Of a stretch of 42,029 nt of DNA, positions 33,529 to 41,326 are shown in pieces. Below the pieces are notes generated by a model, which did not search any database, was not told where the DNA came from, and saw only the letters and a list, made by a program, of their open reading frames with translations. Every line of letters begins with the position of its first letter. The stretch's first letter is position 1. Both the position numbers and the translations under genes were made by a program. The DNA comes from Armatimonadota bacterium (GTDB lineage Bacteria; Armatimonadota; DTGP01; JAKQQT01): positions 1-42,029 of the forward strand of contig JAKQQT010000507.1 in NCBI GenBank assembly GCA_029564025.1, read 5' to 3'.

Positions 33529-34431
33529 ATGCCGAACGATGCCAACAAACGTTACGACGCCGTGTTCGCGGGCGGGGGAGTGCGCGCCATTGCCTATGTG
33601 GGCGCGCTGGAGGTTCTGGAAGCCTGGGGATACACGTTCCGCCGGTGCATCGGAACCTCGGCCGGGGCGATGATTGCCGCGCTCGTCACGGCCGGCTACA
33701 AAGCCTCGGAACTGCGTTCCATCCTCATGCGGTTCGATTTCGCCTCCCTGCGCGATTCCGCGCCGGAAGACATCGTCCCCGCCTTTGGACCCCTGCTGAG
33801 CCTGCTCAAGGACCACGGCATTTACAAGGGCGCCCGCCTGCAGGAGTGGCTCGGTGGATTGCTGGAAGCGCGCGGTGTTCGCACCTTCGCCGACCTGCGC
33901 GATGAAACCGGGGAATACCGTTTGCGCGCCGTGACTGCCGATATCGCCAGAGGACGACTGGTGGTCCTGCCCGATGACCTTCACTATTACGGCCACAATC
34001 CCGACGCGTTCAGCCCTGCGCTGGCGGTACGAATGAGCGCGGCTCTGCCGTTTTTCTTCGAGCCGGTGGCGTTGAAACCGCGCAAGGCTCCATTCGCGGA
34101 AGCCGTGTTTGTAGACGGGGGCGTTGCCCTGAACTTCCCGTTCGATCTCTGCCGTTCGGCCGGCTTGCCGGTGCTTGGTTTTCGGGTGGCCGGGCCGGAT
34201 ACCGAACGTCCCCGCAATGTGCGCGGGCCGATCGCTTATGCCTCAGCGCTGATGGAGACTCTGCTGGGTGCGCGGGACAGGATGACAGCGGAATCGCCAC
34301 AGGTCATCACAATCACCGTTCCGAACCGGAAGGCGACCGACTTCGACCTGTCAGCCGGTCAGAAAAAGCGCCTGATGGCGTGCGGAAGAACGGCGGTGGT
34401 GGATTGGTTGGCCGCGCGCGCGAAGGACTGA
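33529..34431 (+). CDS. Patatin-like phospholipase
   Basis: GGGVR oxyanion loop, GTSAG nucleophile, AVRMSAALPFFFEP, DGG. Confidence 0.92.
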   Translation: MPNDANKRYDAVFAGGGVRAIAYVGALEVLEAWGYTFRRCIGTSAGAMIAALVTAGYKASELRSILMRFDFASLRDSAPEDIVPAFGPLLSLLKDHGIYKGARLQEWLGGLLEARGVRTFADLRDETGEYRLRAVTADIARGRLVVLPDDLHYYGHNPDAFSPALAVRMSAALPFFFEPVALKPRKAPFAEAVFVDGGVALNFPFDLCRSAGLPVLGFRVAGPDTERPRNVRGPIAYASALMETLLGARDRMTAESPQVITITVPNRKATDFDLSAGQKKRLMACGRTAVVDWLAARAKD

Positions 34432-34432
34432 C

Positions 34433-37237
34433 TCAGAGCGTGCCGGTTTCGCGAATCAGATCCACGCGCCGGCGGGTCCACTTTTCGAACTCCACAGCCC
34501 AGAAGACGATGCTTCCCGCGCCGAGGCTGACGAGCAACTGAATGCCGGTCAGCGCGTGTGTGTGGAAGATCGACTGCAGAGGCGGAAGGTAGAGGATGGC
34601 CATATGCATCACGAAAATGGTCATCGCCGCCGTCAGCAGGGGTCGGTTGGTAGCCAGGCCGATGCGGAATAGCGATTGCGTTTCGGACCGGGCGTTCAGC
34701 GCGTAGCTCATCTCGGCAGAGGTGAGCGCCGTGAAGATCATGGCGCTCCATGGTCCCGCGTGTCCGCCTTGGGTCTGGTATCCCCACACGCCCACGCACA
34801 TCGCCAGAATGCCCACCAGGAAGCCCATGACGACCATCTGGTAACCGAGTCCCTGGCTGAACGGCCCTTCGTTCTGGGGGCGCGGCCCGGAGCGCATCAC
34901 GTTCTTGTCGGCGGGTTCCAGACCGAGCGCCAGGCCGGGGATGCCGCCGGTGATGAGGTTTATCCAGAGCAGTTGCAGAACCGTAAGCGGGACGGGCATA
35001 CCAAACGCTTGCGTCAGCAGGATGCACGCCACTTGTCCGACGGTGCTGGCGATGATGTATCCGATATACCGCCGGGCGTTCCGGCAGACGGTACGGCCGA
35101 TTTCCATCGCGCGGACGAGCGTGGAGAAGTTGTCGTCCATGATCACGATGTCGGCGGAATCCTGCGCGATGTCGGTTCCGGAGACGCCCATCGCGGCGCC
35201 GATGTCCGCCTTCTGAAGCGCCGGGGCGTCATCGACGTGATGCCCGGTGATTGAAACGTTGGCGCCGCTTTTCTGGAAGGCCGTTACCAGCGCCAGGCGC
35301 TGTTCGGGTGTGATGCGCGAGAAAGCGGAAACGTCTTGAAGAACGGACGGAAGGTCTTCGTCCGGAATTTGTGCCAGTTCGGCGCCTGTCAGTACTTTGT
35401 TGTTAAACGAAATGTGCAGAGCCCGGGCGATTCTGCCGGCTGTCGGGCCGTCATCGCCGGACAGCATCACGGGCCGGATACCGGCGGACAGGCAACTCCA
35501 GATGGCCAGCCTCACGCCTTCGCGCGGCGGATGGTTCATCCCGGCCATGCCGATAAACACCAACCCGGTTTCCAGCGGCTCCACGGCGCCGTCCGGGGCT
35601 TTCTCGAGGGGACGGCACGCGATTCCGAGCACGTAAAGGCCTTCCTCAACGAGGCCGGCTTGCTTGTCGCCCAGTTCGCGGCGCAATTCGCCGGTCAGGG
35701 GGACAATCTGGTCGCCGCGCCACACGCGGTTGCACACCGAAAGCACGCTGTCGAACGAGCCTTTCGTCACAAGGAAGAATGGCGATGAGTCGCCACGGAA
35801 CAGCCAGGCAAGGGGAACATTCTGGCAGTCGCACCGCAGTTGGTGGACGGTGCTGACCCTTTTTCGTGCCGCGCTGAAGGGGGCTTCGGCGACGACCGGA
35901 TAGGCTTCATCGAGGCTTGCCTCCGGGATATCGTGCTCCGTCGCGGCCCTCACAAACGCTTCATCGACGGCCTGGGGGGCTTTTTTTCCGTTGGATTCGG
36001 CTTTGCCGCCGGGCACACAGCGGTCTTCGCGGCACATCGCCGCCAGTGCGAGCAGGATCTTCGTGGCAGGATGCGTGCGCTGTCGTCTGTGGTTCCGGGC
36101 GGTGGTGTCATGCTGATCGAGCGCGCTCTGGCCGACCAGTTCCGTGTTGTACCCGGCAATGCTGACAACGCGAACCGTCTGGTGCTCCTCGACCAGAGTG
36201 CCGGCTTTGTCCGCGCAGATAACGTTCACCGAAGCAACGTTTTCCACGCTGGACAGGCGTCGCACCAGGATGTTGTTCTCCAGCATCGTCTGCGCGCCCT
36301 GCGCCAGGGCAATCGTCATCACGCCTGGCAGGCCGATGGGGCATGCCGCCACGACCACGACAACGGCGGCGGCGATCATCTCCTCGGTGGTTTTGCCGTA
36401 CACCGCGCCTGCAGTAACAACCAGGGCCACGTCCACCATGATGGCGGCAAGAAGGACGTCGCACACCAGAGCCACTCTTTTCTGGAGGGGAGTCAGTTCG
36501 GCTCGAATCTTCGATGCGACCGGTGTCTGGACGGGCGTGTCCGCCTGCGCGTTGGCGGCCAGCACAACAGCGGCGCCGGTGCCGTGGATCACCGTGGAGC
36601 CGCGCCACAGCATGTTGTCAATCGGAGAATGACTACCGCCTTGATCGTTTCGCTTGTTGATTCGCACCGTCTCGCCTTCGGGAGTGATCTCCTGGATGCG
36701 AAGGTTACTGCTTTCTATCAGCCGCGCGTCGGCGGGAATCAGGGAACCGGCTTCCAGCAGAATCACGTCGCCGGGTTTCACTTCGTGGGCGCGAATGAGG
36801 TGTTCGGAGCCGTCGCGGTCCCGGACGCGCACCGAGGGCACGGCAATACGGCGTAATCTGGTGATGGTTCTGTCGGCGCGCGTCTCCTCGATGAAACCTA
36901 GCCCCGAGTTGATGATGATAATCAGCAGGATGGCGCTGACGTTCCGCCAGTCGGAATAGAGAAGGCTGATGGCGGCGACAGACATCAGCACCAGCATCAG
37001 CGGCGCCGAAAGCTGTTGCCAGATGATGCCGGCCGGGGTGCGCGCGGTGTCGGTTGAAAGCGCCTGCGCGGACTCGCGCCCGCGACCGTCCGTGAAATCC
37101 TCTCGCAAGGCGCGGCGCCGGGCTCGCCGTCCCGAAACCGTAGTCGGCGGAGCGGTCGGCCAGGGAGCGTCGTTGATGTACAGCGGCTGGTCGGTACGTT
37201 TCAAATGAGGCAGTTCCCCGTGCGTGGTAAAGGTCAA
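34433..37237 (-). CDS. P-type ATPase of the P2A (Ca2+-pump) scaffold with degenerate catalytic and ion-binding motifs
   Basis: PGDVILLEAGSLIPADARL, ICADKAGTL, PFSAARKR, PEQR, DAPALQKADIGAAMGVSGTDIA, DDNFSTLV, QLLWINL. Uninterrupted 934-aa ORF with a ten-TM pattern. Start uncertain. Confidence 0.88.
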   Translation of the reverse strand: MTFTTHGELPHLKRTDQPLYINDAPWPTAPPTTVSGRRARRRALREDFTDGRGRESAQALSTDTARTPAGIIWQQLSAPLMLVLMSVAAISLLYSDWRNVSAILLIIIINSGLGFIEETRADRTITRLRRIAVPSVRVRDRDGSEHLIRAHEVKPGDVILLEAGSLIPADARLIESSNLRIQEITPEGETVRINKRNDQGGSHSPIDNMLWRGSTVIHGTGAAVVLAANAQADTPVQTPVASKIRAELTPLQKRVALVCDVLLAAIMVDVALVVTAGAVYGKTTEEMIAAAVVVVVAACPIGLPGVMTIALAQGAQTMLENNILVRRLSSVENVASVNVICADKAGTLVEEHQTVRVVSIAGYNTELVGQSALDQHDTTARNHRRQRTHPATKILLALAAMCREDRCVPGGKAESNGKKAPQAVDEAFVRAATEHDIPEASLDEAYPVVAEAPFSAARKRVSTVHQLRCDCQNVPLAWLFRGDSSPFFLVTKGSFDSVLSVCNRVWRGDQIVPLTGELRRELGDKQAGLVEEGLYVLGIACRPLEKAPDGAVEPLETGLVFIGMAGMNHPPREGVRLAIWSCLSAGIRPVMLSGDDGPTAGRIARALHISFNNKVLTGAELAQIPDEDLPSVLQDVSAFSRITPEQRLALVTAFQKSGANVSITGHHVDDAPALQKADIGAAMGVSGTDIAQDSADIVIMDDNFSTLVRAMEIGRTVCRNARRYIGYIIASTVGQVACILLTQAFGMPVPLTVLQLLWINLITGGIPGLALGLEPADKNVMRSGPRPQNEGPFSQGLGYQMVVMGFLVGILAMCVGVWGYQTQGGHAGPWSAMIFTALTSAEMSYALNARSETQSLFRIGLATNRPLLTAAMTIFVMHMAILYLPPLQSIFHTHALTGIQLLVSLGAGSIVFWAVEFEKWTRRRVDLIRETGTL

Positions 37238-37381
37238 ATTCCATTCTACGCGACACGGGGCGCAAATAGGCCCTCTATCTTTTCAGGGAACCGGCAAATA
37301 CTACAATAAATGGATTCCGCCGTCCGGCGCCGGATGTCTGTCGGGCCGACGGTTTCGCGTGCATTACCACAGGAGACGGCC

Positions 37382-38122
37382 ATGACCGTGCCGACACTGC
37401 CCGAACAACACGCCATCGCGACGCATTTTCCGATTGCCATGCTGTTGACCGGAATCGTGTTCGATATGCTTGCGTCTATTGTGCGAAAACCGGTATGGCG
37501 CGCCGTGGGATTCTGGATGATGCTGGTGGGTGCCGTGATGACGATTCCCTCGGTGGTCACCGGGTGGATGACATTCTCGGATATGTACTCGAATTCGATC
37601 CCACCGGTTGTTGCGGTTCAGCACCGCTTGTTGGCTATTGTAACAACGGTCCTGGCCCTGATACTGGTCGTGCTTCGCATCGCCGATCGCGACAAGGCGA
37701 CCGGTTGGACGAGGGCGCTTCATGTGCTGGCCGGGATTGTCGCGGCTCTGGCCGTGGGCGCCACCGGGCACCTGGGAGGGCAACTGGTATTCAGGGGAGG
37801 GGCGAACGAGGTTTCGCCGGGCGCTCCTCACGCGGCCGCCCAGGCGGAGTTTACACCGCCTCCGGCCCTGGTGACGGAAGGCGAGAACCTGTTCTGGAGC
37901 GACGCCATTGGTTGCCGCGACTGCCACCGTGTCGGTGAAAGGGGTGGATTGACCGGACCGAATCTGACCTCAATCGGCACCTCGAAACCCGATGTGATGT
38001 GGCACGTGAGGCATCTTGAGGACCCCGCGGCCGTGGTGCCCGGATCCATGATGCCCAAAAACGAGAAACTGACACCTCTTCAGCGCGAGGCCCTGGCTAT
38101 GTACCTGGTTTCCCTGCGCTAG
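37382..38122 (+). CDS. DUF2231-like four-TM membrane domain fused to a monoheme cytochrome c
   Basis: ATG 37382 after AGGAG. HAIATHFPIA, VVTGW, QHR and TGHLGGQLVF, then CRDCH, GPNL and HLEDPAAVVPGSMMP. Confidence 0.85.
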   Translation: MTVPTLPEQHAIATHFPIAMLLTGIVFDMLASIVRKPVWRAVGFWMMLVGAVMTIPSVVTGWMTFSDMYSNSIPPVVAVQHRLLAIVTTVLALILVVLRIADRDKATGWTRALHVLAGIVAALAVGATGHLGGQLVFRGGANEVSPGAPHAAAQAEFTPPPALVTEGENLFWSDAIGCRDCHRVGERGGLTGPNLTSIGTSKPDVMWHVRHLEDPAAVVPGSMMPKNEKLTPLQREALAMYLVSLR

Positions 38123-38187: not shown

Positions 38188-39921
38188 ATGATGGCAAACA
38201 TGCTCATTACAGCGCGGGAAGGGCGTCTCTGGGCGCGCTTCGGTTGGAGGGACGCGGCAATCTTCGTCGCGTTCTTCGCCGCTTTGCTGGCGTTCATGCA
38301 CACGCTCCAGTTGATGACCTCCGCGCTCGATCCGCCGGCGTTCAGCATCCGACTGTCCCCTTCAGCGTTGCCCGCATATGCCTGGCGTTCCGTGGTGCGC
38401 ATGTTTCTTGCCTACGGCATCAGCCTGGCCTTCGCCCTCACCATGGGCAGAATCGCGGCGTACAACCGGCGAGCGGAACAGGTGCTGATTCCCACACTCG
38501 ATATCCTGCAGTCCATCCCGGTGCTCGGTTTCGTATCGGTAACTGTCACCGGATTCATGACGCTGTTCCCCGGATCGGTGCTCGGCCTGGAGTGCGTCAG
38601 CATCGTGGCGATTTTCTCCAGCATGGCCTGGAACATCGCGTTCAGTTTCTACCAGTCGCTGAAAACGATACCGCGCGAACTGCACGAAGCCGCCGTCAAC
38701 TTCCGGCTGACGCCATCGCAGAGGTTCATCAAGCTGGAAGTTCCGTTCGCGATGACCGGCCTCGTATGGAACAGCATGGTCAGTTTTGGAAGCGGCTGGT
38801 TCTTCCTGGCGGCCTCGGAAGCCATCACGGTGCTGAACCATAACTACCAGTTGCCGGGGCTGGGATCGTACATGGCGGAAGCGGTGCACCAGAAGGATAT
38901 TGCCGCCATAGTATGGGCGATCGCGGCGATTGTCGCCGTGGTTGTTCTGGTGGACCAGTTGTTCTGGCGGCCGGTGGTGGCGTGGGCGCAGAAATACCGT
39001 ATCGAGGGACGCGACGACGACCAACCCACCAGCGTGATACTGGACATTCTGCGCAATTCCCAGTTGCAGGCGTGGTTTACCGACCGCGTTCTGGCTCCGA
39101 CCGGCGGCTGGATCCAGCGCATTATCGGACGGATGGAGGCGCGTGAGGCGCGGCGCCCCGGCCATTCGAGGTTTTTTTCCTTGCTTCGGTGGATCATTGC
39201 GATTCCCCTGGTGATTATCGGGGCGTCGCTGGTTCTGCGCGGGGTCAGCCTGGCCGTGTTTTCGTGGACCCTGCCGATGATCGGCCACACGGCGTGGCTG
39301 GGCTTGCTGACGCTGTTGCGCGTAACGGCGGTGGTGATCCTGGCGACGATCATCTGGGTTCCGATCGGCGTGCGTATCGGTTTTTCTCCGAAACTGGCCA
39401 AAATAGCCCAGCCTCTTGTTCAGATCGGCGCGGCCTTTCCGGCCAACGTGATCTTTCCGTTGATTACGTTCGCATTCGTGGCGACCGGAGTGCCTTTGTC
39501 ATGGGGAAGCATCCTCCTGCTGATGGTCGGCACGCAGTGGTACGTGCTGTTTAACGTCATTGCCGGCGCGTTGCAGGTGCCGGCGGATTTGCGGGAAGCC
39601 GCTCAGGTTTTCGGTTTGCGGGGCTGGAACCGGTGGCGCCGGCTGGTTCTGCCGGCTATTTTCCCCTCCTGGGTTACGGGCGCGCTGACCGCCGCGGGCG
39701 GCGCCTGGAACGCCAGTATCGTCGCGGAAGTCGCTGTTTGGGGTGACACAACCCTCACGGCGCCCGGACTGGGAGCGCTGATTACCGAGACGACACAGAA
39801 GGGCGACTGGCCGGGCATCATCCTCAGCATCGCCATGATGTGCGCTTACGTGGTGTTGCTTAACCGGTTTGTGTGGCAGAAACTGTATGAAATCGCCGAA
39901 GAACGATTCCGAATGACTTAG
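38188..39921 (+). CDS. ABC transporter permease, NitT/TauT family, with two fused TM domains
   Basis: LDILQSIPVLGF; two EAA motifs (IPRELHEAA and VPADLREAA); GGAWNASIVAE. Confidence 0.9.
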   Translation: MMANMLITAREGRLWARFGWRDAAIFVAFFAALLAFMHTLQLMTSALDPPAFSIRLSPSALPAYAWRSVVRMFLAYGISLAFALTMGRIAAYNRRAEQVLIPTLDILQSIPVLGFVSVTVTGFMTLFPGSVLGLECVSIVAIFSSMAWNIAFSFYQSLKTIPRELHEAAVNFRLTPSQRFIKLEVPFAMTGLVWNSMVSFGSGWFFLAASEAITVLNHNYQLPGLGSYMAEAVHQKDIAAIVWAIAAIVAVVVLVDQLFWRPVVAWAQKYRIEGRDDDQPTSVILDILRNSQLQAWFTDRVLAPTGGWIQRIIGRMEAREARRPGHSRFFSLLRWIIAIPLVIIGASLVLRGVSLAVFSWTLPMIGHTAWLGLLTLLRVTAVVILATIIWVPIGVRIGFSPKLAKIAQPLVQIGAAFPANVIFPLITFAFVATGVPLSWGSILLLMVGTQWYVLFNVIAGALQVPADLREAAQVFGLRGWNRWRRLVLPAIFPSWVTGALTAAGGAWNASIVAEVAVWGDTTLTAPGLGALITETTQKGDWPGIILSIAMMCAYVVLLNRFVWQKLYEIAEERFRMT

Positions 39922-39934
39922 ATCAGGTGACACC

Positions 39935-41326
39935 GTGAAACAGACGACCAAAACCAATAACCCGGACCTGCGTGGCACCGTGTTGCTTTCCGCCGACAAC
40001 ATCTCGAAGTTCTACGGCGAGGGACGGCGCAGGATTCAAGTCCTTCGCGATATCTGCCTGGATATCCGCGAAGGCGAGATTGTGGTGGTGCTGGGACCGT
40101 CCGGCGCCGGCAAGTCCACGCTGTTGCGCATCCTCTCCGGCCTGTCGAAACCGTCCGGCGGACGCGTCCTTTTCCGTGGAGAACCGCACGAAGGACCCAA
40201 CGCTTCCATCGCCATCGTGTTCCAGACGTTTGCGCTATTCCCTTGGCTGACGGTGTACGAAAACGTGGAAGTCGGCGTTCTGAACTCCGACCTGTCGGAA
40301 ACACAGCGCCGGAGAAGCATCCTGAAGGCGATCGACACCATCGGTCTGGACGGTTTCGAGGACGCGTATCCGAAGGAACTGTCGGGCGGTATGCGCCAAC
40401 GCGTGGGTTTTGCCCGGGCGTTGGTGGTGGAACCGGAAATCCTGTTTATGGACGAGCCGTTTTCCACGCTGGACGTGCTGACCGCCGAAAACCTCAAAAA
40501 GGAGCTTCTCTCGCTGTGGGCGGAACGCAAAATCCCGACGAAGGCCGTGGTGCTGGTGACGCACAACATAGACGAAGCCGTGACCATGGGCGACCGATTG
40601 GTGGTGATGGGCACCGATCCGGGCAATATACGCGTGGACATGCCGGGACTGCCGCTGGAGGAACGCGCCAAAGACCATCCGGAACATATCCGCATGGTCG
40701 ACTACCTGTACGGTGTGATGACGAATCCTTCCGAGGTGGTTGCGCCGTTCGGTCCGGAAACTCCGGTCGCCATGCCGGAAGCGCCGGCCCTGCGGCCTTT
40801 CCAGGTTCTTCCGCACGTGGAAGTCGGCCAGATCACCGGACTGGTGGAACGATTGCATTCGGCCAACGACCGGGAAGACATCTACGTGGTCGGCCGGGAT
40901 CTGAACATGGAAGTCGACGACCTGTTGCCGCTGGTTCAGGCGCTTGACCTGCTGGGACTGGGCGACGTGGAGGAGGGTGACGTATTCCTGACACCGGTGG
41001 GCGTGCGGTTTGCCGACGCCGGCCTTCAGGAGCGCAAGGAGATATTCCGCGATCAGGCCCGCGAGAACGTGCAGTTGATCCGCGCAATCCTGCACGGCAT
41101 TGAATCCGATATCGCCAACCGGATCCGGTGGGACGACGTGCTGGAAGACATGGAGCGTCAGTTCACCACGGAGGAAGCCGAACGCCAGTTGGACACTGCC
41201 ATCGATTGGGGACGCTACGCCGAGTTGTTCGCCTACGACGACAGCGACGGTGTGTTCTCACGGGAGTCCGAGGAATACTCGGCCCCGCCCGAGGGCGAGG
41301 AAGGCGAATCCGAAGCAGAGGAATAG
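39935..41326 (+). CDS. ABC transporter ATP-binding protein, NitT/TauT family, with C-terminal AAA-associated domain
   Basis: GPSGAGKST, LSGGMRQRVGFARAL, MDEPFS, VTH; C-terminal DDLLP...AIDWGRYAELFAYD extension. Confidence 0.92.
   Translation: MKQTTKTNNPDLRGTVLLSADNISKFYGEGRRRIQVLRDICLDIREGEIVVVLGPSGAGKSTLLRILSGLSKPSGGRVLFRGEPHEGPNASIAIVFQTFALFPWLTVYENVEVGVLNSDLSETQRRRSILKAIDTIGLDGFEDAYPKELSGGMRQRVGFARALVVEPEILFMDEPFSTLDVLTAENLKKELLSLWAERKIPTKAVVLVTHNIDEAVTMGDRLVVMGTDPGNIRVDMPGLPLEERAKDHPEHIRMVDYLYGVMTNPSEVVAPFGPETPVAMPEAPALRPFQVLPHVEVGQITGLVERLHSANDREDIYVVGRDLNMEVDDLLPLVQALDLLGLGDVEEGDVFLTPVGVRFADAGLQERKEIFRDQARENVQLIRAILHGIESDIANRIRWDDVLEDMERQFTTEEAERQLDTAIDWGRYAELFAYDDSDGVFSRESEEYSAPPEGEEGESEAEE

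Follow-up and report, generated by a model that had tools for sequence, protein, structure and literature searches.

An open-framed, motif-depleted P2A-type ATPase paralogue of a wastewater Armatimonadota bacterium as a candidate pseudo-pump

What becomes of a P-type ATPase when its Ca2+ ligands and many of its catalytic residues are replaced while its reading frame stays open from end to end? This question is raised by a gene at positions 34433-37237 (minus strand) of a 42,029-nucleotide stretch of DNA (hereafter the window; contig JAKQQT010000507.1 of assembly GCA_029564025.1) from an Armatimonadota bacterium, a wastewater organism whose genome is a bin of 756 contigs with 6.39% contamination. 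The product, a P-type ATPase paralogue termed P0001 here and numbered according to the maximal open reading frame (ORF), comprises 934 codons followed by a TGA stop (34433-34435). All P-type ATPases are as a rule taken to be catalytic, and an annotation pipeline would name this gene a Ca2+ or cation pump. An earlier note on this DNA had described a full-length pump homologue stripped of its ligands and most catalytic motifs and had suggested a repurposed protein or a pump with a new substrate. The analysis presented here leads, with a little better than even confidence, to the reading that P0001 is a lineage-specific descendant of PMR1/LMCA1-like P2A pumps which no longer pumps and is kept as a folded, membrane-inserted and expressed pseudo-pump.

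By homology, P0001 is assigned to the P2A branch of P-type ATPases. Pfam matches above cutoff were obtained for E1-E2_ATPase (99 bits), Cation_ATPase (40.1) and Cation_ATPase_C (158.5), while Hydrolase, the haloacid dehalogenase (HAD) family, stayed below its cutoff (21.5 vs 26.4) and the Pfam search returned no match to Cation_ATPase_N. The general P-type model TIGR01494 (195.2, cutoff 62.3) is the only NCBIfam model passed, the Ca2+-pump equivalogs being top-ranked yet far under their cutoffs (TIGR01522, 464.1 vs 798.3; TIGR01116, 416.4 vs 703.4). Listeria LMCA1 (E 5.5e-108), human SPCA1 and SERCA are the closest relatives by sequence among solved structures. The AlphaFold2 model, built on an alignment of 70 sequences, has a predicted local distance difference test score (pLDDT) of 85.4 and a predicted template-modelling score of 0.84; its low-confidence parts are residues 1-60, residues 230-243 in the linker from the actuator (A) domain to M3, and two loops of the nucleotide-binding (N) domain. 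Foldseek ranked SPCA1a (E 3.3e-54) and LMCA1 (9evc, template-modelling scores 0.77/0.84) at the top of the matches to this model, with SERCA also matched. The P-type phylogeny that the earlier note had proposed as a check was computed as a maximum-likelihood tree of 38 rows, in which P0001 is nested inside a 99* clade of 12 rows whose other 11 members are canonical P2A pumps (P0003, P0004 and P0005 included). Its end branch measures 1.53, four times the tree median of 0.38 (sisters 0.23-0.35), a branch of such length being placed less surely in the tree. The paralogues of its own genome sit elsewhere, and P0001 is not derived from them.

The extent of motif replacement was established by aligning P0001 with LMCA1 and with the 14 relatives nearest to it, one of which is a canonical paralogue from its own genome. 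All fourteen relatives carry TGES, PEGL, DKTGTLT, GDPTE, RVLG, DPPR, TGD, SPEHK, TGDGVNDAPAL, N..GE and NLVTDGLP, the counterparts in P0001 being EGET, PIGL, DKAGTLV, QAVDE, YVLG, HPPR, SGD, TPEQR, TGHHVDDAPAL, T.GQ (within STVGQ) and NLITGGIP, respectively. The strand of all sites that follow is minus, and SERCA positions and the roles of residues are cited as general background. In the actuator domain, EGET (36668-36679) retains the Gly and the Glu of TGES. The phosphorylation motif DKAGTLV (36191-36211) keeps the phospho-Asp343 and Lys344, and carries T345A and T349V at two Thr columns that are both invariant in 117 full-length relatives (described below). In the N domain, the nucleotide-pocket motif GDPTE has become QAVDE (35960-35974), which includes T424V, and RVLG has become YVLG (35624-35635), replacing by Tyr535 an Arg that corresponds to SERCA Arg560. 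HPPR (35522-35533) stands for DPPR through D569H. In HAD motifs II and III, two replacements are conservative and fall on columns invariant in the same 117 relatives, namely SGD for TGD (T593S; 35453-35461) and TPEQR for SPEHK (35297-35311), in which the catalytic Lys is Arg647. At HAD motif IV, TGHHVDD (35228-35248) replaces TGDGVND, such that the Mg2+-ligand Asp is His666, the Gly is His667 and the Asn is Asp669, with Asp670 kept; D666H and N669D affect invariant columns, and G667H a column at least 95% conserved.

The ion site is affected as well. In transmembrane segment 4 (TM4), CPIGL (36329-36343) stands for (I/V)PEGL and the Ca2+-ligand Glu (LMCA1 Glu292) is Ile301, at the position of SERCA Glu309. 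TM5 has ASTVGQ for TSNxGE (35033-35050; Asn to Thr732, Glu to Gln735), and TM6 has NLITGG for NLVTDG (34943-34960), where Asn760 and Thr763 are kept and the Ca2+-ligand Asp (LMCA1 Asp720) is Gly764. In TM8, the stretch AEMSY (34703-34717) places Glu842 where the relatives have Gln and LMCA1 has Arg795; it is the sole carboxylate remaining in the former ion-site core. According to a study of LMCA1, Ca2+ is held there by Glu292, Asn716 and Asp720, and Arg795 takes the place of SERCA Glu908 (PMC11468904). Glu292, Asn716, Asp720 and Arg795 align with Ile301, Asn760, Gly764 and Glu842 of P0001, i.e., two of the three side-chain Ca2+ ligands are lost. Apart from these sites, the Arg-rich N-terminal actuator segment (residues 12-72; 37022-37204) is eroded, with a 19% match to the relatives' consensus and a pLDDT of 35-52 over residues 1-60 and 74 for residues 61-70. 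Judged by its residues, P0001 fails four of the five superfamily motif tests as well as the Ca2+-site test on the features that define function.

These alignments bear out the central observation of the earlier note, a full-length P-type ATPase with its Ca2+ ligands and many catalytic residues replaced, and the positions it had assigned to CPIGL, DKAGTLV and TGHHVDD proved exact. KGS for KGA, which it had listed among the deviations, has to be struck off, KGS being found in canonical relatives as well (e.g., P0004 and P0031), while the losses of GDPTE, RVLG and the N-terminal actuator segment come in addition to those it had recorded. Membership in the P1B heavy-metal ATPases was considered and rejected: TIGR01525 gave 165.9 against a cutoff of 346.25, the other P1B models remained far under cutoff, and both architecture and tree are those of P2A. 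The echo of the P1B CPx motif that had been perceived in the TM4 Cys-Pro is thus a local resemblance, consisting of the Cys before the Pro only.

The scale of divergence was assessed on conservation columns derived from the 117 full-length relatives. P0001 deviates at 26 of 94 invariant columns, at 42 of 139 columns conserved to at least 98%, at 64 of 189 conserved to at least 95% and at 91 of 255 conserved to at least 90%, whereas leave-one-out treatment of the relatives gave a median of 2 and a maximum of 15 deviations over the roughly 189 columns of at least 95% conservation. Three equally distant canonical controls (L173, L019 and L099; 41-43% mean identity) kept 93-95% of the invariant columns as compared with 72% in P0001; at variable columns, P0001 is nearer to the consensus than these three. 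By domain, the match relative to that of the sisters is worst in the N-terminal actuator segment (0.32), best in TM7-10 (0.71) and 0.54-0.66 in the rest. In a manual count from the alignments, some 15 of roughly 40 textbook residues of catalysis or the ion site had changed, against 34% of the other conserved columns. Catalytic residues are thus lost at the rate of other conserved columns, a pattern which suggests that the constraints specific to pumping were released across the board and which gives no sign of a targeted rewrite.

Several independent signs show that P0001 is not a freely drifting pseudogene and that its product was under selection while the divergence accrued: the open frame, the hydrophobicity of the transmembrane segments, the conservative replacements, the native codons, the fold, and the presence in DNA runs and RNA. 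The frame holds no internal stop over its 934 codons. In neutral simulations with the gene's own base composition, a kappa of 2 and indels excluded, drift to 28% or 35% replaced residues introduced a mean of 7.0 or 8.5 stops, respectively, and at both levels every one of the 300 runs lost its open frame, which upholds the earlier note's view that an open frame is unlike random decay. A repeat with 200 runs per level gave means of 7.1, 8.8 and 11.9 stops at 28%, 35% and 50% replacement (minima 1, 1 and 4). The ten transmembrane segments contain 7 charged residues in 217, where the relatives' medians sum to 12 and simulated drift gives 14.6-22.4. Further, the replacements at conserved columns have mean BLOSUM62 scores of +0.08, -0.17, +0.77 and +0.11, as compared with -0.51 to -0.64 under drift. 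The G+C contents at the three codon positions are 0.65/0.47/0.77 (third position, 0.773), and the per-codon likelihood of the gene lies at the 72nd percentile among 896 long ORFs of the genome, the other two frames being far worse.

All sampled 31-mers of the gene were present in 14 DNA runs from nine studies, some of which may be the source sample, with source labels of activated sludge, digesters, bioreactors, biofilm, oil field and wastewater. As a separate observation, the host seems to be widespread in engineered anaerobic and wastewater systems, with very little sequence variation. Identical contigs, with 0 other letters, occur in all four RNA libraries compared (three studies), and the gene is apparently transcribed. 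The RNA contigs of three runs end at 37216-37220 and those of the divergent neighbouring gene start at 37331-37340; the intergenic divergent-promoter region between them (37221-37330, no strand assigned) is free of any RNA contig, and such a gap with cover on either side hints, if weakly, at real P0001 transcripts. As the contigs are patchy, the parts of the gene that they leave uncovered (34688-34848 and 35654-35814 in all four runs, with other gaps differing by run) carry no information. In a further run (X17), one RNA-library contig matches only about 36001-36379 and departs from the gene for 255 letters on both sides; this contig is probably chimeric or foreign, sharing a conserved stretch.

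The course of events that would connect these observations runs as follows. A paralogue of a PMR1/LMCA1-like pump would have stopped pumping; P0001 would then have been kept for long as a folded membrane protein, independent of the Ca2+ site, the actuator N-terminus and the canonical Mg2+/phosphate chemistry, and some of the population may by now be able to dispense with it or to switch it. From the residues present, P0001 would be unable to occlude Ca2+ and, most likely, could not run the Post-Albers phosphorylation cycle either. Its retained value would come from the fold itself, for example through binding of a ligand or nucleotide, sensing, membrane partnering or scaffolding.

A number of points weigh against the pseudo-pump reading. 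Set against an average relative, P0001 retains a consensus match of 0.72 at invariant columns and of 0.59-0.69 in the nine other conservation classes, and such near-uniform replacement is also a signature of neutral decay. The earlier note had stated that the changes concentrate on functional residues; this stands in so far as conserved positions are hit disproportionately when P0001 is set beside normal homologues, but not within P0001, where the loss is close to uniform. The confidence of the AlphaFold model draws on the canonical relatives that were aligned, and the RNA evidence has to be read with the caution that RNA libraries can contain DNA and that Logan contigs yield no expression level. 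Furthermore, Asp343, Lys344, the Glu of EGET, the Gly-Asp of SGD and Asp670 would leave some room for residual chemistry.

The lack of relatives adds to these points. The collection of orthologues proposed in the earlier note was attempted and produced no relative above 42% identity in any collection searched. A word-indexed search of 5.8 billion proteins (7997 scored candidates) gave a best non-self match of 42% identity; an exhaustive HMMER search over 1.84 billion representatives, 39%; and 60 related genomes, 38%, the two same-family genomes yielding 32-35%. Scans of metagenome and genome contigs found nothing near, their matches of at most 37% being due to a generic DIVIMDDN-type pattern. 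The database cluster of P0001 comprises 15 sequences at 90% identity or more, and on these searches the protein is, to all appearance, a single-species orphan, with no orthologue to show that its substitutions are conserved.

The most direct point against retention is a frameshift allele. An A7 run in the gene (35981-35987, minus strand; T7 on the plus strand), within the Gly-Lys-Lys codons 417-419 and followed by C6, is the site of a 1-nt deletion. The database protein P0121 (417 residues) is identical to residues 12-419 of P0001 and continues as PPRPSMKRL before a stop, which is the product of an A7-to-A6 deletion. This allele is found on three public contigs, the longest of 35,358 bases, and the sole RNA contig that spans the run (run X16) has the deletion. 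A or T runs of at least seven occur 170 times in the genome, and the tract is in this respect unremarkable. Among shorter proteins, a search for the C-terminal remainder of the frameshift allele as a protein of its own yielded only an identical fragment of 102 residues (P0288). The allele could be a strain-level loss, slippage in DNA or in transcription, or a homopolymer error; its occurrence suggests that some of today's population can do without the gene or has it switched off. The earlier note had named canonical close relatives and frameshifted copies as signs of ongoing pseudogenisation. A frameshifted copy does exist, and the nearest relatives are canonical, yet these are only 38-42% identical and are not close orthologues.

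The alternative that survives best, although we consider it unlikely, is that of a dying gene, i.e., a formerly canonical and now redundant Ca2+ pump paralogue that drifts, with its frame open in some strains by luck or through recent inactivation. Redundancy is plausible on genomic grounds: the same genome encodes at least one complete canonical P2A pump with all seven motifs (contig C593, 784-3441) and a second P2A pump with six motifs that is cut by the contig end (C659, 1522-3669), besides further fragments at contig ends (C717, 1-816; C167, 70-378), and Ca2+ export is therefore covered without P0001. The flat replacement across conservation classes, the loss of catalytic residues at the background rate, the restriction to one species and the deletion on three contigs and one RNA contig would all fit such a fate. 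An open frame, on the other hand, would have to have survived by a chance of about 1e-3 to 2e-4 (Poisson, indels not counted), and drift accounts neither for the fully kept hydrophobicity of the membrane segments, nor for replacements more conservative than its own, nor for native codon usage with a strong third-position G+C preference. The recurrence of an identical sequence over the 14 DNA runs likewise argues against it.

More doubtful still is a P-type ATPase that works by rewired chemistry on a new substrate other than Ca2+. Here, Asp343 would be phosphorylated, Asp669-Asp670 and/or the new His residues would hold the catalytic metal, and a neutral, Gly-rich, Cys-containing TM4-6 pocket together with Glu842 would carry a hydrophobic ligand, a soft metal or a proton. 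Among HAD enzymes, Ser can stand for Thr in motif II and motif IV has DD-type variants, and P4 flippases use DGET and PISL. The kept residues Asp343, Lys344, Gly346, Thr347, Gly-Glu of EGET, Gly-Asp of SGD, Asp670, Lys492 (of KGS), Phe454, Asn760 and Thr763 are in keeping with such a machine; however, this retention does not exceed the chance expectation of about 65% at the background loss rate. The Asn-to-Asp change next to the missing first Asp is seen again in P0264 (TGGCIDDAP), a relative that degenerated independently, and P0249 has TGDGVDD. The evidence of selection serves this reading as well as it serves the pseudo-pump. Against it stands the simultaneous change of at least eight invariant catalytic-motif residues (T345A, T349V, D569H, K647R, D666H, N669D, R535Y and T424V), to which the near-invariant set adds G667H, and the erosion of the N-terminal actuator part and of the A-M3 linker. 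A bolder and distinctly improbable version sees an active, re-engineered P-type machine in which His569, His666 and His667 with Asp343, Asp669 and Asp670 would form a site for a transition metal or another ligand in place of Mg2+/phosphate, the neutral TM4-6 cavity and Glu842 would deal with a cargo or signal other than Ca2+, and the A7 tract would act as a slippage on/off switch. Finally, an assembly or binning artefact, in the form of a chimeric or error-ridden contig of a metagenome-assembled genome as fragmented and contaminated as this one, is hardly credible in view of the complete set of sampled 31-mers in 14 runs from nine studies, the RNA contigs without a differing letter, the genome-like codon usage and the record of the same protein in a public collection.

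With the pseudo-pump reading retained as the preferred one, the setting of the gene can be described. The first possible start of the maximal ORF is a TTG at 37237. The probable true start is the TTG at 37202-37204 (minus strand; codon 12), as it is preceded at 10 nt by a Shine-Dalgarno-like GGGGAA box, coincides exactly with the first residue of P0121 and lies close to the RNA contig ends. In the upstream intergenic region, the minus strand has a -10-like TAGAAT (37244-37249) and the plus strand TTTTCA-16-TACAAT (37280-37307); a promoter and terminator scan returned one promoter-like and three terminator-like sites, numbers not above those of shuffled sequence.

The gene stands alone, without a co-directed partner at either flank. 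A patatin-like gene (33529-34431, plus strand) converges on its 3' end, and a gene for a DUF2231 (predicted membrane protein) and C-terminal cytochrome c fusion with FixO/Cytochrome_CBB3-like matches (37310-38122, plus strand) diverges from its 5' end. Both same-family genomes have homologues of the latter, 40-41% identical, and no ATPase match is listed for the contigs concerned, while the patatin-like neighbour had no match in either of these genomes with the query used; therefore, no syntenic canonical ancestor is available for comparison with P0001. Beyond the fusion gene, positions 38188-41326 (plus strand) encode a long ATP-binding cassette (ABC) permease (577 residues, two BPD_transp_1 stretches) and then an ABC ATPase with a C-terminal AAA_assoc_C domain, which may form one operon with it.

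Among known systems, the bacterial single-site P2A Ca2+-ATPases (LMCA1; PMR1/SPCA, TIGR01522) are the nearest, and P0001 equals them in length and in the architecture of ten transmembrane segments with actuator, phosphorylation and nucleotide-binding domains. The phospho-Asp, Asn760 (LMCA1 Asn716) and much of the phosphorylation-domain scaffold are shared, whereas Glu292 and Asp720 are Ile and Gly, the motifs TGES, DKTGTLT, DPPR, SPEHK and TGDGVND are all altered, and Cation_ATPase_N is unmatched. Of 265 collected proteins of at least 800 residues, 60 miss at least one of eight motif patterns, and only four miss four or more, namely P0001 (6), P0249 (5), P0156 (4) and P0264 (4). In P0156, Glu stands for the phospho-Asp (EKTGV); P0249 has PAAL and DKTGI in addition to the variant cited above; and P0264 has GKTET and NLITGS. 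Like P0001, these three are full-length, P2A-like and short of signature motifs, but they are 32-33% identical to it and carry different sets of substitutions; therefore, such degenerations recur independently. The features common to P0264 and P0001 (the lost first Asp of TGDGVND, the adjacent Asn-to-Asp change and NLITG in TM6) apparently reflect convergence.

No description of a bacterial P2A pseudo-pump was found in the literature searched, the coverage of which excludes subscription journals. Papers on mutagenesis of Asp703 and Lys684 were also sought, and those retrieved were of tangential relevance only. P0001 would add a further case of a fold descendant that does not pump, its frame kept though about half of its residues have changed, and the weight of this case is limited by its being a one-species orphan with a co-circulating frameshift allele. 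In eukaryotes, an old and conserved family, TMEM94/ERMA, resembles P0001 in having a full P-type-like fold, a contested pump status and missing signature motifs; there is no detectable specific relationship between the two, P0001 being a one-species bacterial offshoot of ordinary P2A pumps. For TMEM94, one report describes a protein that lacks TGES, in which no nucleotide was seen at the phospho-site proposed for it and which had no ATPase activity in detergent (PMC12134183), and the opposite view on TMEM94/ERMA activity is argued in another (PMC13322241). A precedent for non-catalytic reuse of the fold is the degenerate P4-ATPase-like domain of the apicomplexan (Plasmodium) guanylate cyclase GC-beta (PMC6592433). 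That domain is eukaryotic, of the P4 subfamily and fused to a cyclase, whereas P0001 has no added domain and is a stand-alone derivative of the P2A pumps.

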